Positions 3,489-51,089 of a stretch of DNA of 64,000 nucleotides are shown one piece after another. The position numbers were made by a program, and so were the translations under genes. The stretch is from an uncultured Clostridium sp. (GTDB lineage Bacteria; Bacillota; Clostridia; TANB77; CAG-508). The notes under the pieces are model-generated. The model ran no database searches. It was given only the letters and a program-made list of their open reading frames with translations, and had not been told where the DNA came from. Positions within the stretch are counted from its first letter, which is position 1. Each line of letters begins with the position of its first letter. Where the stretch lies: contig CAZUAJ010000001.1 of the NCBI GenBank assembly GCA_964618105.1, positions 24,896 to 88,895 on the forward strand. The letters run 5' to 3'.

Positions 3489-4301
3489 TTATAGTAGCAT
3501 GAACAAAAAGTATGCGAATGGTGCAGCAAATATAACACTATCTATTCTATCTAACATTCCACCATGTCCAGGAATTAAATTGCTAAAATCTTTAATACCA
3601 GTATATCTTTTTATACTTGATGCTGCTAAGTCACCAATTTGGCTTAATATGCTTAATATACTTGTTATAATTGCGACACTTAAATAGTTAAATTCTATGC
3701 TAAATACATATTTGCATACAATACTATATAATATTGCTATTATAACTGCTCCTAAAATTCCACCAATACAGCCTTCTATTGTTTTTTTAGGGCTTATTTC
3801 TGTAAAGTGATGTTTGCCAATTGATTTTCCAACAACATAAGCAAATATGTCTGTTCCCCATGCTGCAAAAAATACAAACCATATTAGCAATTTTCCATGT
3901 TCTAAATTTTCATGTATAACAGAAAGATATATTAGGAATATAACTATATAAAATATTCCAAAAAAAGTAACTGCTATATCTATTATATTAACTTTTAAAT
4001 TTTTTATTATAACATACAAAAATAAAATTGCTAAAGTTATTGGTAATAACAGTCCTATTGTTTTTACCGTCCATTCCTTTGGTATTACATGAATTAATGA
4101 AACCATTGCTGCTAATATATATCCCACCCAAGTAATTGGATTTGCCTTTTCACTTGTACGAAATGCTTTGTAAAATTCATGTAAACACATAATGGCTAAT
4201 ATTGCTATTGCTACATCAACTACATATTTATTACCTAAAATTAATATAGCTGCAGCTACTGGAAATAGAACTAGTCCTGATACAACTCTTTTTACGTTCA
4301 T
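3489..4301 (-). CDS. cdsA: Phosphatidate cytidylyltransferase (CDP-diglyceride synthase)
   Basis: Polytopic membrane protein with CdsA-like C-terminal region; conserved position between uppS and rseP. Confidence 0.8.
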   Translation of the reverse strand: MNVKRVVSGLVLFPVAAAILILGNKYVVDVAIAILAIMCLHEFYKAFRTSEKANPITWVGYILAAMVSLIHVIPKEWTVKTIGLLLPITLAILFLYVIIKNLKVNIIDIAVTFFGIFYIVIFLIYLSVIHENLEHGKLLIWFVFFAAWGTDIFAYVVGKSIGKHHFTEISPKKTIEGCIGGILGAVIIAILYSIVCKYVFSIEFNYLSVAIITSILSILSQIGDLAASSIKRYTGIKDFSNLIPGHGGMLDRIDSVIFAAPFAYFLFMLL

Positions 4302-4380
4302 ATTATTTTTTCCTTTCTCGCTTTGCTTGAGAGCATATATAGTTATGAAAGTTTATATTTCTTTCAAACTTATCCTTTTA

Positions 4381-5088
4381 TTATTTACCACCAAATTTAC
4401 GATTTCTATTTTCAAATATTTGTATTGCATCATCTAAATCTTGTTCTGTAAAATCTGGCCAATATTTTTGTACAAAATAAAATTCTGTATAAGCAAGTTG
4501 CCATAAAAGGAAATTGCTCAATCTTTGTTCTCCACTTGTACGAATTAATAAATCTGGTTCTAATTGTCCTGCAGTATAAAGTGAGTTTGAAATTGTTTCT
4601 TCATTAATATCTTCAACATTTATTTTATTTTCTATTACATCTTGAGATATTTTTTGAACTGCTCTTACAATTTCATCTCTTCCACCATAATTAAATGCAA
4701 TATTTAAAACTAAGCCTGTATTATTTTTTGTTTTTTCTAATATTTTGTTTATACTTTTTTGAAGGCCTGAATCTAATTTTGATACATCCCCTAATATATT
4801 TATTTTTATATTATCAAAATCATTACTTGTTAAAAATTCTTCTAAATATTTTTGAAGTAAAATCATTAATGCACCAATTTCGTCCTTAGTTCTTTTCCAA
4901 TTTTCTGTTGAAAAAGCATAAACCGTCAAATATTTTATTCCAAGCTTATTTGCATATTTAGCAATTTTTTTTAGTGTTTCGGCACCTTGTTTATGCCCTA
5001 ATCTGTAATCTAATCCTTGCTCTTTAGCCCATCTACGGTTACCATCCATAATAATGGCAATATGCTTTAGTAATAATTCATTTTCCAT
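4381..5088 (-). CDS. uppS: Undecaprenyl diphosphate synthase
   Basis: MDGNRRWAK motif and cis-prenyltransferase family features. Confidence 0.9.
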   Translation of the reverse strand: MENELLLKHIAIIMDGNRRWAKEQGLDYRLGHKQGAETLKKIAKYANKLGIKYLTVYAFSTENWKRTKDEIGALMILLQKYLEEFLTSNDFDNIKINILGDVSKLDSGLQKSINKILEKTKNNTGLVLNIAFNYGGRDEIVRAVQKISQDVIENKINVEDINEETISNSLYTAGQLEPDLLIRTSGEQRLSNFLLWQLAYTEFYFVQKYWPDFTEQDLDDAIQIFENRNRKFGGK

Positions 5089-5206
5089 ATTATTTTTTCA
5101 TTCCTTTTTATATAATTTCGGTTACAATTTTAAAAATAATCAGTACATTAGAGTACAAAATTATACTTTAGCTTTATATTGTTTTTAGTAAAGCAAATTT
5201 AGAATT

Positions 5207-5755
5207 TTATATATTTATAATTTCTTTTTCTTTTTTATCTAGTAAAGCATCAACTTCTTCAACTTTTTTGTCTGTTAATTTTTGAATTTCATTTTCTTCA
5301 TTTTTTAAGTCATCTTCTGTTATTTCAGATTTTTTTTGCATTGCTTTGGCTTCGTCAATTGCATCTCTTCTTATTGCTCTTATTGCAACTTTAGCATCTT
5401 CAGCTAATTTTCTAATATCTTTTACAAGTTCTTTTCTTCTTTCTTCATTTAATTCTGGAAAGTTTAATCTTATTGATTTTCCATCATTATTTGGATTAAT
5501 TCCAATATCTGATTTTAATATTGCTTTTTCAATTTCTTTTAAAATACTTGCATCCCAAGGTTGAATTAAAATTGTTCTAGCTTCTGGTACAGAAATACCT
5601 GCTACTTGATTTATTGGTGTTGGAACACCATAATAATCAACCGTAATTTTATTTAATATTGCAGGATTTGCTCTACCTGCTCTAATTTCTGATAAATTTT
5701 CTTCAAAAACACTTATTGTTTTATTCATTTTTTCTTCATACATATTATTTAACAT
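5207..5755 (-). CDS. frr: Ribosome recycling factor
   Basis: 182 aa; typical Frr sequence and pyrH-frr adjacency. Confidence 0.9.
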   Translation of the reverse strand: MLNNMYEEKMNKTISVFEENLSEIRAGRANPAILNKITVDYYGVPTPINQVAGISVPEARTILIQPWDASILKEIEKAILKSDIGINPNNDGKSIRLNFPELNEERRKELVKDIRKLAEDAKVAIRAIRRDAIDEAKAMQKKSEITEDDLKNEENEIQKLTDKKVEEVDALLDKKEKEIINI

Positions 5756-11692: not shown

Positions 11693-12388
11693 ATGGCTGG
11701 AAATGATATAGAAATAAAAAATAATACTGTTATTCATAAAGATAACTCATTAAATAGACTAGACTTATCTTTCTTGAAACATATAGAATTAGAAGAATTT
11801 AAAAAGAGTGATTTACTAGCTTATTGGATTAATGACTTTGCAGTTTACCACGATGAAGAAAGAACTTTTAATATTTCAAAATCTGGTGTATTTTCTCGTG
11901 GAGATATTATAAAAGTTAATCTAGGTTTTAATATAGGACATGAATTAGGAGGACTACATTACTGTGTTGTATTAAGTAAGTATGATAATACTAGAAATGG
12001 AACATTAAATGTTATTCCTTTGACTTCAAAGAAAACAAATAAGAAATATGATTCTTCTACTGTAAATCTTGGAAATGAATTATATAGTATTTTACAAGAA
12101 AAACTTGATAAAGAAAAACAAAAATTAAAACAAATTTTAGATGAATTAGATAAAATAGAAGATATTCCTATTAATATTCAAAATATAATAGAAAAAGAGA
12201 AAATATATATTGAAAAAATGGAAGATGAAATTTCTAAAATGAAACAAGATAGTATAGCTTTAATAAATCAAATAACTACAATTAGTAAACAAAGGATTTT
12301 TAAAGATACTTTAAGAAGAAATGTAAAACTATCTAACAATTCACTTGACTTAATAGATGAGCAAATTATAAAATATTTTACAAAATAA
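11693..12388 (+). CDS. PemK/MazF-fold domain protein with N-terminal extension and a C-terminal coiled-coil (about 90 aa) tail
   Basis: RGDIIKVNLGFNIGHELGGLHYCVVLS ... NVIPLTSKK matches the PemK/MazF signature (GD[IV]..[VA].[LF]....G.E.GG.RP.[VL]V[LI]S ... V.P.TS). Confidence 0.5.
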   Translation: MAGNDIEIKNNTVIHKDNSLNRLDLSFLKHIELEEFKKSDLLAYWINDFAVYHDEERTFNISKSGVFSRGDIIKVNLGFNIGHELGGLHYCVVLSKYDNTRNGTLNVIPLTSKKTNKKYDSSTVNLGNELYSILQEKLDKEKQKLKQILDELDKIEDIPINIQNIIEKEKIYIEKMEDEISKMKQDSIALINQITTISKQRIFKDTLRRNVKLSNNSLDLIDEQIIKYFTK

Positions 12389-12394
12389 AAAAGA

Positions 12395-12428
12395 GGAGAG
12401 TTGCTATTGAACTCTCCAAAATCTTTTT
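12395..12428 (+). terminator. Terminator of the MazF-like gene
   Basis: GGAGAGTT-N7-AACTCTCC then AAAATCTTTTT. Confidence 0.55.
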
Positions 12429-12495
12429 GGCTCCCGTCTTACTACATAAGTAGTAGAGAGTTAAGTTAAATATATTTTAACATATAATATTTAAC

Positions 12496-12517
12496 TTGTC
12501 AAATCAATATTTGACAA
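12496..12517. repeat. Perfect palindrome TTGTCAAAT-CAAT-ATTTGACAA next to the recombinase pseudogene
   Basis: Read directly; 9-bp arms. Confidence 0.5.
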
Positions 12518-12582
12518 TATTATTATATTCAATAATATTCGAATGTATACTTTAAACTATAAAAAATTACAATTATGATGAT

Positions 12583-12614
12583 AAAGGCGAAAACTGTTTT
12601 CAGTTTTCGCCTTT
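12583..12614. terminator. Bidirectional terminator, perfect 14-bp stem
   Basis: AAAGGCGAAAACTG-TTTT-CAGTTTTCGCCTTT. Confidence 0.7.
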
Positions 12615-12618
12615 AAAG

Positions 12619-13968
<1,350 letters not shown>

Positions 13969-14020
13969 CCTTTACAGTTGATTTATCAATACTTTCGTCT
14001 GGTGCGACGATTTTACTTAA

Positions 14021-14034
14021 TGGAGCTTCCAGCC
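14021..14034. repeat. att core copy, the displaced 3' end of tRNA-Thr
   Basis: Identical to 45052-45065. Confidence 0.8.
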
Positions 14035-14089
14035 TTTTTAGTTTTTCTGAAGTTGAGCATTTACAAGGCTTTTAGCTATTATATTTATT

Positions 14090-14111
14090 TTTTAATGTGA
14101 TTTTAATGTGA
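14090..14111. repeat. Tandem 11-bp repeat TTTTAATGTGA x2, putative integrase arm-type site
   Basis: Near-identical motif TTTTAATGTAA occurs x3 at 44861-44910 next to int. Confidence 0.4.
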
Positions 14112-14237
14112 TTATATTATTTTTTTGAAATAATATTTGTAAAATAATCTTTTTAATATTATAACTATGACATCTCTAAATTTCAATAGTTTTCTAACTT
14201 TTTATATTAAAAATTTCAAAAAATATTTAAAAAGTTA

Positions 14238-14266
14238 TTGACATACGTATAAATACGTAGTATAAT
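14238..14266 (+). promoter_or_regulatory. Consensus sigma-A promoter TTGACA-17-TATAAT of hicAB; the spacer holds two palindromic TACGTA hexamers
   Basis: TTGACAtacgtataaatacgtagTATAAT read directly. Confidence 0.7.
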
Positions 14267-14290
14267 AATTAACAGAAAGGAGGATAATAA

Positions 14291-14468
14291 ATGCGAAGTA
14301 GACAGCTAATCAAATTGCTAAAGCAAAATGGTTGGCACGAAGTATCTCAAAATGGTTCTCACTTAAAGATGAGAAAACGGTAATCAAATAGAAATAATAC
14401 CGGTACATAATAAAGATATTCCAATCGGAACAGCTGAAGCAATACTTAAAAGGACAGGGCTAAAGTGA
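14291..14468 (+). pseudogene. hicA: HicA toxin gene interrupted by a 1-nt frameshift at the A4 run (14375-14378)
   Basis: Frame 1 reads MRSRQLIKLLKQNGWHEVSQNGSHLKMRKR*. Shifted frame continues ENGNQIEIIPVHNKDIPIGTAEAILKRTGLK*. Together these align with HicA (GSHxxxxHP...VPxHxKDLxxGTLxxILKQAGL). Confidence 0.7.
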
Positions 14469-14607
14469 TTAGCCCTTCCTACAACATATATAATATAATT
14501 TTCAGTTTATTAAGGAGAAGGCTTAATTTTATATTATATTAATTATTGCTGATTCACTGCGCATTATTTTCTTCTTTCTATTTTTTAATAATTTGGAGGG
14601 TTTTAAA

Positions 14608-15000
14608 ATGAAAAAAGGATTAACTGTCTTTCCTGCAATATTTACATTTGATGGTAAATATTATAATGTTGACTTTATAGATTTAAAATGCTGTTCAACT
14701 TTCGGAGACAGTATACAAGATGCCTATTTAATGGCTCAAAATGCTATGGGCTTATATTTAGATAATCTTACTAATTTTCCAAGTCCAACTTTAGATGTTT
14801 CAGGTATTTTATTGGATAAAAATCAATTTGTATCATTTGTAAGTATTGACATGGACGAATATCGAAAAAAATTTAACAATAAATCTATAAAGAAGACTTT
14901 ATCAATACCAGAATGGTTGAATTATTTATCTGAAAAAAACAATATAAACTTTTCTCAAGTTTTGCAAGAAGCATTGAAAGAAAAACTAGGTATTGACTAA
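14608..15000 (+). CDS. hicB: HicB family antitoxin (UPF0150 N-domain plus C-terminal DNA-binding tail)
   Basis: FPAIFTFDGKYYNVDFIDLKCCSTFGDSIQDAYLMAQNAMGLYL matches the HicB N-terminal fold; RBS GGAGGG before ATG 14608. Confidence 0.7.
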   Translation: MKKGLTVFPAIFTFDGKYYNVDFIDLKCCSTFGDSIQDAYLMAQNAMGLYLDNLTNFPSPTLDVSGILLDKNQFVSFVSIDMDEYRKKFNNKSIKKTLSIPEWLNYLSEKNNINFSQVLQEALKEKLGID

Positions 15001-38217: not shown

Positions 38218-38592
38218 CTAGTCCGTTCTTGGAATATGTGAATAATTTGCATCTTCCATTTCTTTTTGTTTGAACTCTTGTAAAACTGGATTTAAGCATT
38301 TGTTACATAAGGCCAATGTTACTGCTTCTTTAGTTTTTGTTATATTAGTTGGTAATACTACTGTTCCTCCTGAAGGAATCTTATTAGTATCAGCTCCATT
38401 TAATTTTCTATTTGGTATTTGTATTTCAGCTCCACAGTAATCGCAAATATAATAATAATAGTCAATTGTTTTCTTTATTCTTGTTAAATGATTTGGGCTC
38501 TCTTGAGTCTTATATTTAATATTTTTAGCTGGTTTTGATCTAGTTGCATAACTTTCAATTCTATTTACTATTTTTCTATAATTGTTTTGCAC
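38218..38592 (-). CDS. Hypothetical protein with CxxC pairs
   Basis: ORF. Confidence 0.3.
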   Translation of the reverse strand: MQNNYRKIVNRIESYATRSKPAKNIKYKTQESPNHLTRIKKTIDYYYYICDYCGAEIQIPNRKLNGADTNKIPSGGTVVLPTNITKTKEAVTLALCNKCLNPVLQEFKQKEMEDANYSHIPRTD

Positions 38593-39386
38593 TATTTTCC
38601 CTCCTTCAACTCAGTTTGTAGACATCTGATAAAGTAAGATACTAATCGTTCAACTTCAATGCCTTCGTCTCCACTCACGTATTCTTTGGCCTTTAAAAAT
38701 CTCAAGCATAATTGGTTGTATGTAAGTGAATTTAGATATACTTTATATGGGCTAAAATATAATTCTTTTATTGCCCAATAAAATACTTTTGTTTCTATAA
38801 TTTTGTTTTCTGTAAAGAAGTTAAGAATATCAGTATTCTCAACAAGTATTCCTAATCTTTTTAAATGAATTATTATTATTGATTTGTCTTGCAAATTTAT
38901 TTTATCTTTGCCGTTTTCAAAAAAATCCTGCCCATTATTATTTATATAATTAAAAAATAAGTCTAGTGTAGTGTTATAGTGTAGTGATATAATATACCCT
39001 TTTGCCAAGCCGTCTGGTTGCCTGTTTGGTTGCCCTTCTGCTTGACCAAGTGGTTGCCCGTCTGGTTGTCCTTTTTTTGGTTCATAATCTTCATAAAGTT
39101 TGATAATCTGGTACTTTGGTGCTTCATTCTGGTTTCTACCCTTTTTATATATAATATATTTTTGGGTAATCAACTCATTTCTTGCATTTTGCAATTGTTT
39201 TATAGTTAATCTCAATTTGCTCATAATCGTACTATTGGCCACACTAAATTCCCTCATGAATCTTGTCATACTATCTATGTGTAATATAAACTGGTATATT
39301 GCAATAGCATTAGTAGAGAGATTTTGATAATCTAATGTGGAATAGAATGCTTTTAGTTGTTTAATATAGTCCATTTTTCTCTCCAA
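38592..39386 (-). CDS. Phage replisome organiser / DnaD-like replication initiator
   Basis: N-terminal replisome-organiser-like domain, Gln/Pro-rich linker and DnaD-like C-terminus. Confidence 0.5.
   Translation of the reverse strand: MERKMDYIKQLKAFYSTLDYQNLSTNAIAIYQFILHIDSMTRFMREFSVANSTIMSKLRLTIKQLQNARNELITQKYIIYKKGRNQNEAPKYQIIKLYEDYEPKKGQPDGQPLGQAEGQPNRQPDGLAKGYIISLHYNTTLDLFFNYINNNGQDFFENGKDKINLQDKSIIIIHLKRLGILVENTDILNFFTENKIIETKVFYWAIKELYFSPYKVYLNSLTYNQLCLRFLKAKEYVSGDEGIEVERLVSYFIRCLQTELKEGK
39011..39071. repeat. Iteron-like direct repeats (GGTTGCC x3 plus GGTTGTCC) inside the initiator gene; tagtgtagtg x2 at 38963-38986
   Basis: Read directly; encode the GQP repeats of the linker. Confidence 0.5.
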
Positions 39387-39441
39387 TCCGTGTAAAATTT
39401 CGACAAAAAACCTCGCTGTATGTGAAACATCTATTTAACAT

Positions 39442-39795
39442 CTATTTGTTCGAGCAAATTTTTTCAACACATAAAATTAGAAATTCTTTATTTGTAATAT
39501 GTTGTTTTGCAAAAATATTACAATATTTTCCATTTTGTAAAGAATGTCTCATTGACTTTTCTACCCTACTTCTTGTTGAGTCATAATACTCTGCATTATA
39601 CATATATATCTCTTCCATTTTAGTTTTGACTATTACTGTTGATTTGACCCCTCCGTTTTTATTACATTTATTTACGACATAACTAATGGCTCTTAACCAA
39701 TAGCAAAATCCTAGAGATGAATGTTTAAAATTCATCTCGTTTAATAATTCTGTTATTTTTCTCTCTATTTGCTTATTCTTTGCATTTTCTTCCAT
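39442..39795 (-). CDS. Spo0A C-terminal (DNA-binding) domain-only protein
   Basis: LGFCYWLRAISYVV, STRSRVEKSMRHSLQNG and KEFLILCVEKI align with the Spo0A_C segments IKGYHYLREAILMV, TASRVERAIRHAIEVAW and SEFIAMVADKL. Confidence 0.55.
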   Translation of the reverse strand: MEENAKNKQIERKITELLNEMNFKHSSLGFCYWLRAISYVVNKCNKNGGVKSTVIVKTKMEEIYMYNAEYYDSTRSRVEKSMRHSLQNGKYCNIFAKQHITNKEFLILCVEKICSNK

Positions 39796-39812: not shown

Positions 39813-40640
39813 CTATTTAGTAATATTAATCATTGGAATATTGTCTCCTAAATTTGTTGTAGGTAGTTGACCATTCCATTTTTCAACTAATTTTTCTTGA
39901 ATTTCTAGTTGTTTTAATTTTAAAGTTTTTTCTGTAATTTCTTTATTTTGTAGAGCCATAACTTCCGCTTCTGCTTTTGCATTTTCTACTTTCTTTTGAT
40001 TATCTACCTGAGCTTTTTCAAGTTCGGCTTTGGCTTTCTCTACGTTTTGTTGAGCTGTTGCTTTTTCTTCAATTGCTTTATTGTATTCTTCTGAAAAGTC
40101 AAAATTCTTAATTGACACTTCTGTTACTTTGATTCCATTTGCTTGTAATTTATTTATTAACATTTCTTTTATAAGTTCTGAAACCTTGTTTCTGTTTGTA
40201 ATAATTTCTTCTGCAGTGAATTGTGAAAAAGATGATTTTACACTTTCTTGAATAGCTGGTGCTATAATAATACTTTCATAATCTTTTCCCACCTGTTGAT
40301 ATAAAGTATTAGCCTTTTCTTTCTCTACTGAATAATTTATTGCTGTATAAATAGCTTTTACAACTTGCATATCTTTTGTAGAACTTTCAAAAGCATTTTC
40401 ATTTTCGTAGATTTGTGTTTTACAGTTTATTTTTACAATTTTCTCTATAAATGGTGTTTTTAGGTTTAGCCCCTCTTGAATAACAGTATCTTGTACTTGT
40501 CCAAATTTTGTTTTCACTCCCACAAAGCCTGTAGGCACTGTTGTTATACTTCCAAATATAATAATTAGCATTATTGCTACTATAAATAAAACAGATATTA
40601 ATATTATTTTTGATTTATCATTCATTTTCTTTTCCTCCAA
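39813..40640 (-). CDS. SPFH/band-7 (prohibitin/HflKC-like) membrane protein
   Basis: N-terminal TM then SPFH core and coiled-coil tail. Confidence 0.7.
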   Translation of the reverse strand: MEEKKMNDKSKIILISVLFIVAIMLIIIFGSITTVPTGFVGVKTKFGQVQDTVIQEGLNLKTPFIEKIVKINCKTQIYENENAFESSTKDMQVVKAIYTAINYSVEKEKANTLYQQVGKDYESIIIAPAIQESVKSSFSQFTAEEIITNRNKVSELIKEMLINKLQANGIKVTEVSIKNFDFSEEYNKAIEEKATAQQNVEKAKAELEKAQVDNQKKVENAKAEAEVMALQNKEITEKTLKLKQLEIQEKLVEKWNGQLPTTNLGDNIPMINITK

Positions 40641-41639: not shown

Positions 41640-41837
41640 TTATTTTTGTTTAAATAGATATTCAATGTTTAAATTAGGAAAATACTTTTCTTTTATTGCA
41701 AACATTTCACTTCTATTCCATTCTGTTTTTCCTAGAAATTTATTTCTTAAAGTTTCATATACATACCCTAAATCCCTTGAGATATCTTTTATAGTTATAT
41801 CTATTCTTGCCATCTCTACTTTTAAATTTTCATACAT
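41640..41837 (-). CDS. Cro-like XRE-family repressor (65 aa)
   Basis: Start at MYENLK with RBS AGGAGGTG; HTH; divergent from cI. Confidence 0.6.
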   Translation of the reverse strand: MYENLKVEMARIDITIKDISRDLGYVYETLRNKFLGKTEWNRSEMFAIKEKYFPNLNIEYLFKQK

Positions 41838-41856: not shown

Positions 41857-41998
41857 TTTTTTTGTATTTTAAATTTTATTTCAATACAGTTTTCTGTATT
41901 TGTATCTCGATAATAATACAACTTTTTGTATTTGTCAATACTTTTTTTACAAGTTTTTGTATTTTTTTATTTACAATACAAAAAAAATTTGTTATACT
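41857..41998. promoter_or_regulatory. Genetic switch region: four or more direct copies of TTTGTATTT(G/T), one inverted copy, and the cI promoter TTTACA-17-TATACT
   Basis: Read directly. Confidence 0.55.
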
Positions 41999-42034: not shown

Positions 42035-42370
42035 ATGAATTTAGCTGAAAAAATCAATCTACTTATGATGCAAAATGATATAAAAAATCCTAAAGAATTG
42101 TCAGAAAAAATGAATGAAAAAAAATTAAGAATTCCATATACTACATTACTAACTATTATCAATAATGAAGTTCAAGATATAAAATTAGGTACTGCAAGAA
42201 AAATTTGTACATTTTTTAGGATTACACTCGATGAGCTTTTGGATGACAGTATACCTATATTAGATATAACCAAGCCACTAAACACAGATGGTTTAAGTGA
42301 ACAAGATATTAAAGAATTACAAGAATTGATAGAGATAAAAAAGAAATTAAAGAAAAATGAAAGGAAGTAA
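42035..42370 (+). CDS. cI-like XRE-family repressor (111 aa)
   Basis: HTH_XRE in the first 70 aa; RBS AAGGAAGTG. Confidence 0.6.
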   Translation: MNLAEKINLLMMQNDIKNPKELSEKMNEKKLRIPYTTLLTIINNEVQDIKLGTARKICTFFRITLDELLDDSIPILDITKPLNTDGLSEQDIKELQELIEIKKKLKKNERK

Positions 42371-42378
42371 ATAGTATA

Positions 42379-43227
42379 ATGAAAATTAAAAAGGTAATTA
42401 TTGATTTTGTTTTATGTTTCTTTTTTGGTTATTTAGGAATACATAAATTCTATGAAGGAAATAAAAAACTAGGTACTATATATCTATGTACTTTTGGAAT
42501 ATTTGGAATAGGTTGGCTTGTAGATCTTATTATATTATTTTTAGACATATTGAAATATTTTAATAATACAAATGTTAATAATGTTCACTCTAACGTTCCT
42601 ATTAAAGAGACTATTGATATAAATGATATTGAAATTTCTTTTTATGAACCTACTTATTATGAAAGAAAAAAATCTTTATATTCTAAAACTAAAATTAAAA
42701 AATTTGTAGATGACTATGTAGTTTTCGATTTAGAAACAACAGGTCTCAGTCCTGCTAACAATGAAATAATAGAAATAAGTGCGTTAAAATATAAAAATAA
42801 TACATTGATAGATTCATTTAATGAATTAGTAAAACCAGTTACTCCTATTCCTAGTAGAATTACTAAATTAACTGGAATTACAAATGAAGATGTTGCAAAT
42901 TGTGATACTATCAATAAAGTCCTTCCAGATTTTATTGCATTTATAGAAAACTATACTTTAATAGCTCATAACGGAAGTTTTGATCTTGGTTTTATTGAAA
43001 AATATATAAATGAATTAAATATAGATTATAAGGATAATTCTAATATAGATACATTGTATCTTACAAGAAAGTATTTACCTGAGCTAGATAATCATAAGTT
43101 AGAAACTTTAAAAGAATATTTTAAATTAGACAATGCATCACATAGAGCAACTGCTGACTGCGAAACAACTAATGTTATATATCAATATTGTAAAGAAAAA
43201 AAATTAAATAAAATAAGTAAAAAATAA
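42379..43227 (+). CDS. TM2-domain membrane anchor fused to a DnaQ-like DEDDh 3'-5' exonuclease
   Basis: GYLGIHKFYEG..GIFGIGWLVDLIIL matches the TM2 domain; Exo I VVFDLETTGL, Exo II LIAHNGSFDLGFI, Exo III HRATADCETT. Confidence 0.7.
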   Translation: MKIKKVIIDFVLCFFFGYLGIHKFYEGNKKLGTIYLCTFGIFGIGWLVDLIILFLDILKYFNNTNVNNVHSNVPIKETIDINDIEISFYEPTYYERKKSLYSKTKIKKFVDDYVVFDLETTGLSPANNEIIEISALKYKNNTLIDSFNELVKPVTPIPSRITKLTGITNEDVANCDTINKVLPDFIAFIENYTLIAHNGSFDLGFIEKYINELNIDYKDNSNIDTLYLTRKYLPELDNHKLETLKEYFKLDNASHRATADCETTNVIYQYCKEKKLNKISKK

Positions 43228-43380: not shown

Positions 43381-44808
43381 ATGAACAAAAAGGGATTTAG
43401 AGCTACTAACGGCGAAGGTTACGTTGGAACAACAATTCAAAAGATAAAAAAGCAATTTGACAACTCTAAAATGTGTAGTATTTGTATGTCTTGTACTAAT
43501 AGATCTATGTGTAATAATCGTATAGATTGGACCAAATGTGAAAAATGCAAGAATTGTAAAGAAGAATGTCTTAAATATTGTGACCGCTTCTATTGTAGAA
43601 AAATGGTACAAGCTCAAATAACTATTGATGGTAAACAAGTTTCTGTTGCTTCAAAAAGAACTCGAAAAGAAAGTATTGAAGAAAAAAAGCGTAAAGAATC
43701 TGATGTGCTTTGTGGCACCTATGTAAAAAAAGACAATAGGACATTATACCATTTTTGTAAAGAAGTGGAAGCAGAAAAAATCGCAGCTAATAAAATTAAG
43801 CAATCTACACAAAATAGAAATAATAATACCTTTGACAAAATAAAAAATGCCGATTTCTTCAGTAAGAGTATACAAAAAACTACTAAAACTGATATAGATA
43901 ATTTTATTAGTCAATATAAATACCTTTCACAGTCCGAATTAGATAAGATTTCAAATATCATTAAAAGCGGTTTCGAAAGAGCCATGGCAAGTGATGTAAT
44001 AACATACAAACAAAATTTTATGAGAAATTATTGTGTTCCCTGCTCCGAAAAACAAGAGAAAGAAGTTGTTGCCTTTGAGCTAGAAGAATTTATAACTTTA
44101 ATAAAATATGTACTCACAACCAATAAATTGATTAAAAGTAGTAAATGTAATTATGATAGTCGCACAATTAGAAATATTATAATTCTTTCATTTTTGTCAC
44201 TTACTCGAATCGGTGAAATGGGAGCACTTGATATAGATAAGCATATTGATTTACAAAAAAAATATATCAGTATTGAAAGAACTCTTACAGAAGATGTTGC
44301 AGGAAAAGTTATAATGGGAACAACAACAAAAACTGGTAATCGCCAGAAAAAGGTTGAAAAAAGAATAATAAACTTCAACATCTTTTCTGAAGAACTTTTT
44401 TTAATGATAATTAGAGATCAAATCGAAAACTCAAGAAATAATATCAATAATATCGAAAATTTGCTTTTCTGTGACAAAAATGGGAACTATATAGTTCCTT
44501 CAGCAATTACTAATATATTTAAACGAATATGTCGTGATGCAGGTGTAAAAGTTAACTTAACAACAGGGTGCTTCATACACATGACACGACATACTGCTAT
44601 ATCTTTTATGATCTCATTAGGGTATGACCTGGTATTTATAACATCTTTTTCTGGTCACAGCAGTATAAAAGAAATTGAACGAACTTATGGCCATATTTTA
44701 AATGATTATAGAAAAAAGAAATTGGAAAATCCGAATTTTCATTACGAAAAAGAAGATATTATTACAAAAGAAATTATAAATTTAGCCCAAAAATGTTATT
44801 TACATTAA
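43381..44808 (+). CDS. int: Tyrosine integrase with long N-terminal Cys-rich region
   Basis: C-terminal RHTAISFMISLGYD...GHSSIKEIERTYGHIL (R..H..R..Y); adjacent to tRNA attL. Confidence 0.8.
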   Translation: MNKKGFRATNGEGYVGTTIQKIKKQFDNSKMCSICMSCTNRSMCNNRIDWTKCEKCKNCKEECLKYCDRFYCRKMVQAQITIDGKQVSVASKRTRKESIEEKKRKESDVLCGTYVKKDNRTLYHFCKEVEAEKIAANKIKQSTQNRNNNTFDKIKNADFFSKSIQKTTKTDIDNFISQYKYLSQSELDKISNIIKSGFERAMASDVITYKQNFMRNYCVPCSEKQEKEVVAFELEEFITLIKYVLTTNKLIKSSKCNYDSRTIRNIIILSFLSLTRIGEMGALDIDKHIDLQKKYISIERTLTEDVAGKVIMGTTTKTGNRQKKVEKRIINFNIFSEELFLMIIRDQIENSRNNINNIENLLFCDKNGNYIVPSAITNIFKRICRDAGVKVNLTTGCFIHMTRHTAISFMISLGYDLVFITSFSGHSSIKEIERTYGHILNDYRKKKLENPNFHYEKEDIITKEIINLAQKCYLH

Positions 44809-44910: not shown

Positions 44911-45051
44911 AATAACTTTTAGTAATTTTTAATAGTTTTTACTTATGCTATAAAAAAATAAATAACAGCTATAAATATTGATTTTTCAATATTTTTTAAT
45001 GTTTAGTTACATTTAATAACATTTAGTAATTTTATTAAATATTAAATTTTT

Positions 45052-45127
45052 TGGAGCTTCCAGCCGGAATCGAACCGGCGACCTCAGCCTTACCATGGCT
45101 GCGCTCTACCTACTGAGCTATAGAAGC
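45052..45127 (-). tRNA. tRNA-Thr (anticodon GGT) with encoded CCA
   Basis: Manual cloverleaf: GCTTCTA/TGGAAGC acceptor, D-arm GCTC-AGTAGGTA-GAGC, anticodon loop ATGGTAA, T-arm GCCGG-TTCGATT-CCGGC. Confidence 0.85.
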
Positions 45128-45180
45128 ATATTTAAAAGAACTTTTATAAATTTTAATCTATAAAAATTCTTAAAATTTAT

Positions 45181-45843
45181 TTAAAATTGTTCGTTTGGTA
45201 TTTCTTTAATAGCTTTTTTACGAATTCTTTGAATTGCATTGTCAACAGATTTAATAGGTGTATTTAATTTTTCGGCAATTTTCATATAACTTTCTCCCTG
45301 CATATAAAAATTCAGTACTTGTTTTTCAAAATTACTTAAAGATTTATTAATAGTATTTTCAATTATATGATAATATTCCTTTTGAGTAATAGTTTCCAAA
45401 GGATCTTCTATTAGATTTGTATTAAGAATTTCTATTAAGTCTGCATCATTTTGATTATTTATATCTCTATTGTCATAAGCATTTATATTAAGAGATAAAT
45501 ATGAGTTAAGTGGCATATTTTTTTGTCTATTTGAAGTTTTAATAGCAGTAATTAATTGTCTTTCAATACACATATTTGCAAAATTTTTAAAAGAACTTTG
45601 CCTATCTACTTGGTAACTTTTTATTGCTTTAAATAATCCAATTAGTCCTTCTTGTACAATATCTTCTCTTTCTGCACCTATTATATAGTATTTACTAACT
45701 TTCATATTTACTAAACTTTTGTAACGATTAATAAGATGTTCTAAAGCATATTTATTTCCAGACTTAATAATTTCTATTAAGTCTTCATCACTAATTTCTT
45801 CAAAATTAGTATCAAATGAATAATATGTATTTGCATTGTTCAT
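45181..45843 (-). CDS. sigH: Sporulation sigma factor SigH
   Basis: REDIVQEGLIGLFKAIKSY...SFKNFANMCIERQLITAIKTSNRQKNMPLNSYLSLN closely parallels Bacillus/Clostridium SigH. Confidence 0.8.
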   Translation of the reverse strand: MNNANTYYSFDTNFEEISDEDLIEIIKSGNKYALEHLINRYKSLVNMKVSKYYIIGAEREDIVQEGLIGLFKAIKSYQVDRQSSFKNFANMCIERQLITAIKTSNRQKNMPLNSYLSLNINAYDNRDINNQNDADLIEILNTNLIEDPLETITQKEYYHIIENTINKSLSNFEKQVLNFYMQGESYMKIAEKLNTPIKSVDNAIQRIRKKAIKEIPNEQF

Positions 45844-50432: not shown

Positions 50433-51089
50433 TTAAAAATATGATATACACATTAACAATAAATTTGTTGATAAATATGTTTCTATAATTGATGAAATTA
50501 TAAGTAATAATAGTAAAATAAACGAAAATAAAGTATGCCTTATAATTTCTATTTTTATGTTTTCTCTCCTTTTGTCTTTTAATATTGATTTATATAGTTT
50601 TATGCCACTTACAGCAAGTGCAATAACAGATGGAATAAATATTAAATTTTGTAATATTACACTTGTAGCTAAAAAAAGTGTGCCTTTTCCTGTTCCTAGT
50701 ATGCTTACAATTACAGATGTAGTATATCCAAAACAAAATCCCCTAAAAGCTACTATTCCTATAACTATTGGTATTCCAACAACAGTAGAACCCATAAACC
50801 ACATAATTAAAACTAATATAGAATTGTTTTTTAACGACTTGTTTAAAAGGTTAGAACTATTTATATTTTTATTTTCTTTTAATGATGTTATAAAATTTTC
50901 TAAATAATTTTGTATATCTTTTATTTGATTTTCTCCTAGGTTGTTTACAAATATTACACCTAGTATAATTCCTATAAGCATAATAATCGAAACTATTATA
51001 TATGCCTTAAGGTTTTCTCTTATATGATTTTTTATTATTTGGGCAAATTTTGATGTTTTCTTGTGTGTTTTTTTCATTTTAAACCTCAT
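50433..51089 (-). CDS. spoIIM: Stage II sporulation protein M-like membrane protein
   Basis: Five TM helices, about 210 aa, next to xerD. Confidence 0.5.
   Translation of the reverse strand: MRFKMKKTHKKTSKFAQIIKNHIRENLKAYIIVSIIMLIGIILGVIFVNNLGENQIKDIQNYLENFITSLKENKNINSSNLLNKSLKNNSILVLIMWFMGSTVVGIPIVIGIVAFRGFCFGYTTSVIVSILGTGKGTLFLATSVILQNLIFIPSVIALAVSGIKLYKSILKDKRRENIKIEIIRHTLFSFILLLLLIISSIIETYLSTNLLLMCISYF

Follow-up and report, generated by a model that had tools for sequence, protein, structure and literature searches.

In catalogues of sporulation genes carried by phages, no entry is more striking than the copies of spo0A. Homologues without a receiver domain have been described from gut viromes, and signal-independent control was proposed for them (Schwartz et al. 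2023, PMC10294663). Enrichment of the Spo0A effector-domain family (Spo0A_C, PF08769) in mobile elements of Firmicutes was reported in 2017, five uncultured-phage proteins in BFVD carry the Spo0A_C name and viral proteins are so named in UniProt. Isolated DNA-binding domains of Spo0A bind legitimate targets without phosphorylation (PMC3485338). In phage phi29, host Spo0A acting at phage 0A boxes represses the early promoters as well as replication, which makes spore entrapment possible (PMC2731898), and sigF/sigG-like homologues of sporulation sigma factors encoded by phages reduce spore yield, in the account that PMC10294663 gives of them. Here we describe a prophage gene encoding a stand-alone Spo0A effector domain, together with an adjacent 0A box, in a stretch of 64,000 nucleotides from an uncultured Clostridium sp. 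(assembly GCA_964618105.1, contig CAZUAJ010000001.1, positions 24,896 to 88,895 of the forward strand; hereafter the window).

As in the homologues of Schwartz et al., the protein consists of the effector domain only and is encoded on a prophage of a spore-forming Firmicutes host; its relatives have the same architecture, and phosphorelay-independent action is proposed in both cases. The concept of a receiver-less phage Spo0A is itself already published (PMC10294663). That catalogue-level study makes no mention of binding sites or 0A boxes, and a description of the pairing of the gene with a 0A box was not found in the literature searched. New here are a diverged stand-alone lineage, a deletion of helix alpha-E with the recognition helix kept, placement in an early operon with a link to the replication module, and a conserved 0A-box element next to the gene. 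Canonical 0A boxes in early/replication control regions are shared with phi29 and Nf (work of Meijer, Castilla-Llorente and Salas; PMC2731898), the box of the window being an early-operon site within the replication-initiator leader. However, phi29 uses the Spo0A of its host and encodes no homologue, whereas the prophage carries both a box and, beside it, a Spo0A-like reader. Furthermore, phi29 is a protein-primed podovirus of Bacillus, whereas the phage described here is temperate and of siphovirus type, a prophage in a Clostridium-like host. The sigF/sigG-like factors, in the same account, are likewise sporulation transcription factors of the host that phages have copied and express on infection, but belong to a different family and are RNA polymerase subunits, whereas the window protein is a predicted competitor for DNA sites. 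We put at about 0.55 the probability that, as the sequences suggest, the phage protein binds the 0A box and has a target in the phage itself. The conserved box points to such a target, namely, the replication-initiator leader; an earlier reading of this DNA (hereafter the sequence-only reading) did not contain it.

A conserved 0A box beside the gene

A perfect 0A box lies 37 nucleotides (nt) past the stop codon of the Spo0A_C-like gene and precedes the replication initiator's ribosome-binding site by ~14 nt (Table 1). TGTCGAA occurs twice in the window, against 2.4 expected. All related loci that could be retrieved were compared. The box is conserved in the close relatives at loci L001, L002 and L004. 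At L003, which is a different prophage with a protein 41% identical, the stop codon is followed by TTTTTGTCGAAAAA and then by a downstream gene of another kind; this is the only TGTCGAA in 16 kb, and the replication gene is 1 kb away. AGTCGAA is found 27 nt past the stop codon in L011, 30 nt in L016 and 22 nt in L005, L027 has TTTTGTCGAAT at +28, and in L025 CTTTGTCGAAAG falls within the last codons of the gene. L029 has TGTCGAA at +26 and, in addition, a perfect box in inverted orientation, 63 nt into the gene (4315-4321 and 4403-4409), which are the sole two occurrences of GTCGAA in 8.4 kb. In one of the two L029 boxes the letters are those of the conserved TNS-T-F codons (helix alpha-F), part of a conserved protein motif thus doubling as a 0A box. 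In L006 and L007 the gene has no box at its 3' end, and the box stands instead immediately past the promoter -10 element of the small operon to which the gene belongs, a position that is operator-like to judge from the sequence.

All 4096 hexamers were scored in the interval -30 to +60 relative to the stop codon, with one representative per lineage. GTCGAA ranked first, followed by overlapping pieces of the 0A box and then by ribosome-binding-site hexamers. Of the 13 lineages (at most 52% pairwise identity), eight have it at the gene's 3' end, compared with 7 background occurrences in 222 kb, which corresponds to p=1e-17, a value that overstates the independence of the lineages, four of the positive ones sharing the element by descent. 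This enrichment lends strong, though indirect, support to the idea of the sequence-only reading that the protein binds 0A boxes. Selection on GTCGAA is what these alignments point to, because the core is kept while the spacer has diverged, and other lineages differ in geometry.

The box is one half of a bipartite element. A second conserved motif, TGTTTCA, lies upstream of GTCGAA, and TGTTTCA-N18-GTCGAA with exact spacing and an internal GCG(A/G) is found in four lineages, the GTTTCA-N18-GTCGAA pattern being unique in each locus. TGTTTCA or its inverse, TGAAACA, occurs within 45 nt upstream of the box in seven of the eight box-positive lineages (p~2e-13), with equivalents of the motif in L003, L005, L011, L016, L027 and L029. 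Spacings between motif and box are 18 nt in the four lineages, 28 nt, which is one helical turn more, and 9 nt where the motif is inverted. Overlapping the second motif are two tandem copies of an 11-nt unit that span the stop codon (Table 1); three copies are present in L004 (5384-5416). These iteron-like repeats are confined to the phage group of the window. A search with the element only returned just the already known contig among viral contigs and six GC-rich chance matches without a Spo0A_C gene among metagenome contigs.

An RNA element or terminator was rejected as an explanation for the intergenic block: RNAalifold found 0 pairs across six lineages, the fragment from the window folds no better than shuffled sequences do (z=+1.2) and no terminator was found in the scan. 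With neither RNA pairing nor stability, the conservation is therefore one of the DNA, which is what a protein-binding site would show. A sigma-70, sigma-H or extracytoplasmic-function (ECF) promoter was likewise rejected upon inspection, since no -10 element separates the box from the ribosome-binding site, the spacing does not suit sigma-H and the second motif occurs in both orientations. Across lineages the box precedes the next gene's ribosome-binding site by 9-20 nt and is therefore part of a transcribed leader, too close to that site for a promoter to fit in between. Homologous N-termini (MxYIxQLxxFYS) are encoded after the Spo0A_C-like gene in L001, L002, L004, L005, L011, L012 and L016, and in most lineages replication genes follow, namely, those for a DnaD-like initiator, DnaB_2, SSB and RusA.

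The relaxed pattern TGNCGAA is found 20 times in the whole window versus 9.2 expected (none of 100 shuffles reaches 20), mostly as TGGCGAA or TGCCGAA and mostly on the minus strand, which is the strand of most genes in the window. This excess probably reflects codon usage rather than regulation.

A Spo0A effector domain without receiver and without most of alpha-E

The 117-amino-acid protein is a genuine homologue of the Spo0A effector domain without a receiver. It matches PF08769 with 31.8 bits (gathering score 25, E=1.5e-7) over model positions 1-102 of 104, and this is its sole Pfam match; a receiver domain with the phospho-acceptor aspartate is not present. The open reading frame is preceded by an AGGAGGA ribosome-binding site 8 nt 5' of its start and separated by 17 nt from the preceding gene, which leaves no room for a receiver domain, so that its absence, asserted in the sequence-only reading, is borne out. 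In a phmmer search against PDB sequences the matches were the effector domains of Bacillus subtilis and Geobacillus stearothermophilus Spo0A only (1lq1, E=1e-3; 1fc3, E=6e-3). Two AlphaFold models were built, one from a three-sequence input (predicted local distance difference test, pLDDT, 81) and one from a 40-sequence family alignment (pLDDT 93.7, predicted template-modelling score, pTM, 0.87). Both match all seven Spo0A-C chains of 1LQ1/1FC3 with template-modelling (TM) scores of 0.64-0.79 and a probability of 1.00, and in the structure comparison of both models with the PDB every match other than Spo0A-C has E>1, in agreement with the kinship claimed in that reading. Helices in the second model comprise residues 2-20, 28-46, 52-57, 60-70, 75-88, 92-95 and 102-115. 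This is the six-helix effector fold with helix-turn-helix of the 1FC3/1LQ1 type, in which alpha-E is a one-turn remnant only.

Alignment with residues 149-267 of B. subtilis Spo0A (P06534) shows that the three conserved segments singled out by the sequence-only reading are real and correspond to alpha-B/helix-turn-helix, the recognition helix and the C-terminal helix. The recognition helix S210-R-V-E-R-A-I-R-H218 of B. subtilis reads S-R-V-E-K-S-M-R-H in the phage protein, giving the common motif SRVE(R/K)xxRH. Among 40 family members the equivalent of Glu213 is nearly invariant and that of Arg217 invariant. The C-terminal helix is retained with its TNxEF motif (PTNSEFIAMV in B. subtilis, ITNKEFLILC in the phage protein). 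By contrast, the phage protein differs from bacterial Spo0A in having no receiver, an identity of just 26-28% to B. subtilis Spo0A-C, a 9-residue insertion between alpha-B and alpha-C and Lys in place of Arg214; moreover, it is phage-encoded, with no autoregulation through the phosphorelay.

A further difference concerns alpha-E. Thirteen residues are missing, equivalent to B. subtilis 225-231 and 238-243, and the model has the one-turn helix of residues 92-95 where alpha-E would be. The deletion is common to the stand-alone lineage in the alignment of relatives, whereas the longer L031 subgroup retains alpha-E. Kumar, Brannigan and Moran reportedly assigned to alpha-E, in 2004, the role of a sigma-A-activating region. 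The alpha-E region (B. subtilis residues ~227-240) is the sigma-A activator surface of Spo0A, and an 8-residue deletion there that keeps the reading frame makes Clostridium pasteurianum asporogenous (PMC4690370). The phage protein is thus predicted, from alignment and model, to bind DNA yet to be unable to activate sigma-A-dependent promoters; given the missing residues, occlusion rather than activation is expected at such promoters of the host.

A profile search of 1.84 billion representative proteins gave 71 relatives, nearly all of which are stand-alone proteins of 95-135 amino acids; full-length Spo0A is almost absent among them. Identity to any relative outside its own phage group is at most 45%, and by sequence the protein belongs to a separate, diverged stand-alone lineage. 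A recent truncation or pseudogene of host spo0A is ruled out by the low identity to Spo0A-C, the stand-alone nearest relatives and the intact open reading frames across lineages. Two relatives, P0027 (428 amino acids) and P0066 (416 amino acids), have an unusual architecture of three tandem Spo0A_C domains without a receiver, in which the alpha-E region (AWxRGN) is retained.

DNA and protein searches of the cultured phages in INPHARED found no relative of the phage or of the protein, which explains why experiments on phage spo0A do not exist, and single-protein scans of viral contigs with P0005, P0006, P0008 and P0011 gave no match. The 14 matches to B. subtilis Spo0A-C in the cultured-phage search are UNVERIFIED faecal virome scaffolds, and three of the five inspected encode full-length Spo0A. 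These three, L034, L035 and L036 (MT835718.1, MT835737.1 and MT835504.1), are labelled 'Bacteriophage sp.' and have Spo0A with a receiver in open frames of 255-292 amino acids; they probably contain bacterial (host) DNA. Counts of 'phage spo0A' based on viromes need checking for bacterial DNA.

A probable phage-internal target and its alternatives

With a target in the phage itself, the protein would, like isolated Spo0A DNA-binding domains, need no phosphorylation to bind 0A boxes. The conserved primary target would be the box that adjoins the gene and leads into the replication module; there the protein could gate read-through into the replication genes or their expression, or compete with phosphorylated host Spo0A (Spo0A~P), which on binding such sites in phi29 brings the lytic cycle to a halt. 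Host 0A boxes would also be occupied during infection, the specificity being the same. As a non-activating competitor the protein would occlude sigma-A-dependent sporulation promoters instead of activating them, and the net effect would be lytic development that is uncoupled from, or opposed to, the sporulation decision of the host. Such an effect on host sporulation is plausible. If this reading is true, 0A boxes of phage genomes and phage-borne spo0A fragments join in one circuit that sets lysis against spore entrapment in gut Clostridia. The locus offers a defined native candidate target, the 35-nt element, together with a prediction of binding but not activating, which makes the idea of sporulation manipulation directly testable.

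A broader version of this reading is more tentative. The gene and the bipartite element (TGTTTCA-N18/28-GTCGAA or TGAAACA-N9-GTCGAA) might constitute a self-contained regulator-operator module, widespread in clostridial prophages and located at the entrance of the replication genes, that reads host Spo0A~P through competition at its own box and overrides it as an activation-dead mimic on host boxes. This would be a dedicated phage circuit for the decision to 'lyse now or ride the spore'.

Several observations weigh against the phage-internal target. The association of gene and box is, at the level of sequence, a statistical one, and the box is missing in five of the 13 lineages. The prediction was fixed beforehand and the last three loci (L029, L030 and L031) were kept as a held-out set, one of which was positive (L029). 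Of the two misses, L030 has a degenerate recognition helix (VRKAMSY) without the conserved Glu and Arg, and L031 belongs to the longer, alpha-E-retaining subgroup. The presence of TGTTTCA makes the element, as read from its sequence, more than a simple 0A box. The replacement of the Arg214 equivalent by Lys is one conservative change in the recognition helix, and statements on base contacts are based on motif conservation, not on 1LQ1 coordinates. The box could serve host Spo0A~P alone, and the Spo0A of the host itself is not encoded within the window. Finally, regulation at the box could mean repression, protection or activation.

When the protein would act is suggested by the operon. A near-consensus, PR-like promoter drives the cro-like gene and the minus-strand early operon, both promoter and cro-like gene being upstream of the Spo0A_C-like gene, and no terminator and no better promoter were found by scanning the minus strand between the PR-like promoter and position 38900. 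The gene is therefore an early lytic gene, predicted to be repressed and silent in the lysogen. The sequence-only reading suggested that a receiver-less domain could occupy 0A boxes constitutively; in a lysogen this is not expected of a gene in a repressor-controlled early lytic operon without a promoter of its own. From the predicted silence it follows that no sporulation phenotype would be expected on comparing lysogen with cured strain, and that effects would appear during infection or induction. The same reading also offered a role as a decoy, of which a part survives: a decoy for phosphorelay kinases or phosphotransferases is excluded by the missing receiver domain, and competition for DNA sites is all that is left.

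The alternative that fares best is the model of the sequence-only reading, a host-directed hijacker of sporulation, for which the relevant targets are 0A boxes of the host (spo0A, sigH and promoters of the spoIIA/E/G type) and the box in the phage is incidental or secondary. With it the phage would drive its host towards sporulation or away from it. We consider it unlikely as an account of the locus, although it is compatible with a phage-internal target and not exclusive of it. The DNA-reading helix is the same as that of Spo0A, the host forms spores and has both sigH and spoIIM, and the family occurs in prophages of Clostridia. The same proposal has been published for the virome homologues (PMC10294663), and isolated DNA-binding domains are active without phosphorylation (PMC3485338). 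However, a gene in a repressor-controlled early lytic operon without its own promoter would not act in the lysogen, and a protein without the sigma-A-activating helix cannot trigger sporulation as Spo0A~P does. The conserved, tight linkage of box and gene is also left unexplained by a purely host-directed role.

In a second, rather improbable alternative, the box is a sensor of the phi29 type only: in sporulating cells, host Spo0A~P at the box would arrest the early/replication operon and the phage would end up entrapped in the spore, while the phage protein would have a different specificity or role and its linkage to the box would reflect a shared history of the module. Host Spo0A acts at 0A boxes in phi29 and Nf (PMC2731898), boxes have been noted in SPO1 (PMC12991052), and the box, in the transcribed leader upstream of the replication gene, has a roadblock-type position. 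In L003, however, the box stays with the Spo0A_C gene while the replication gene is 1 kb off, and loss of the box is seen in the lineage (P0078) whose recognition helix is degenerate. In L006 and L007 it is found at the operon promoter, and a regulator co-inherited with its site is the simpler reading.

Least probable of all is that the bipartite element and the 11-nt repeats are part of a phage replication origin which the protein binds or organises, unrelated to sporulation: the synteny with the replication genes listed above is consistent, the repeats are iteron-like and the 18- and 28-nt spacings differ by one helical turn, but there is no direct evidence for an origin at the locus, the iterons occur in one lineage only, the element is only ~35 nt long and its exact 0A-box sequence would be an unexplained coincidence.

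Prophage and host context

The sequence-only reading placed the gene in the early region of a prophage whose host forms spores and has both sigH and spoIIM, and this holds: the integrase, a cI/cro-type switch, att repeats and the host genes are all found (Table 1). The prophage is ~31 kb in size and bounded by two copies of a 14-nt attachment (att) core, one of which is the 3' end of a tRNA gene. Further prophage genes encode a RusA resolvase, an HNH/NUMOD4 endonuclease, TerS/TerL, portal and capsid proteins and an M23 peptidase (lysin). The SPFH gene precedes the Spo0A_C-like gene also in L001, L002 and L004 (SPFH coordinates 4415-5230, 1693-2505 and 4192-5019, respectively). The host flank contains sigH (45181-45843) and spoIIM (50433-51089), in addition to ligA, uvrB, xerD and asnS. 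The host, with a GC content of 27-28%, is a low-GC organism and, to judge from sigH and spoIIM in the flank, an endospore former.

Table 1. Coordinates of the 0A-box element, the Spo0A_C-like gene and further prophage features in the window.
Feature	Position	Strand	Basis or remark
Perfect 0A box TGTCGAA (extended form TTTTTTGTCGAAATTTT)	39399..39405	-	leader of replication-initiator gene
Second conserved motif TGTTTCA	39423..39429	-	exactly 18 nt upstream of GTCGAA
Two tandem copies of 11-nt unit AAATAGATGTT, spanning the stop codon	39426..39447	-	read from sequence
Stand-alone Spo0A effector-domain (Spo0A_C) homologue gene	39442..39795	-	117-amino-acid open reading frame, ATG start; Pfam PF08769; AlphaFold model
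Replication initiation protein / DnaD-like helicase loader	38592..39386	-	likely start ATG 39374; PHROG 19658 E=7e-11, PHROG 186 E=2e-8
SPFH/Band-7 membrane protein, directly upstream of the Spo0A_C-like gene, same operon	39813..40640	-	Pfam Band_7 E=7e-32
cro-like small repressor, first gene of the early operon	41640..41837	-	PHROG 4583 transcriptional repressor E=3e-5
PR-like early promoter TTGACA-17-TATTAT	41910..41938	-	promoter scan, 11/12 matches
cI-type prophage repressor (HTH_26), divergent	42035..42370	+	Pfam E=1.6e-6; promoter TTTACA-17-TATACT at 41970-41998
Tyrosine integrase	43381..44808	+	Pfam Phage_integrase E=9e-16
tRNA-Thr(GGT), integration target; att core 45052-45065 is its 3' end	45052..45127	-	ARAGORN; direct repeat D6
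Distal att core TGGAGCTTCCAGCC	14021..14034		direct repeat D6

The product of sigH is a sigma factor that works with Spo0A at the onset of sporulation. The tRNA-Thr(GGT) gene is ~50 nt downstream of the host sigH (both within 45041-45843), and the prophage with the Spo0A mimic is thus integrated beside sigH. This adjacency could be a coincidence, tRNA genes being common att sites. Between the repressor and the integrase, a gene on the plus strand (42379-43227) encodes an N-terminal TM2 membrane domain fused to a 3'-5' exonuclease of the RNase_T/DnaQ type; being on the lysogeny side, it may be expressed in the lysogen in a moron-like manner. Near the distal att site there are genes for a PemK/MazF-like toxin domain protein (11693-12388) and a HicB-like antitoxin (14593-15000), as well as a serine-recombinase gene (12875-13612) whose Resolvase match begins at model position 60, so that the domain looks N-terminally truncated. 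The toxin, recombinase and antitoxin genes, just outside and just inside the distal att (11693-15000), may be remnants of another mobile element.

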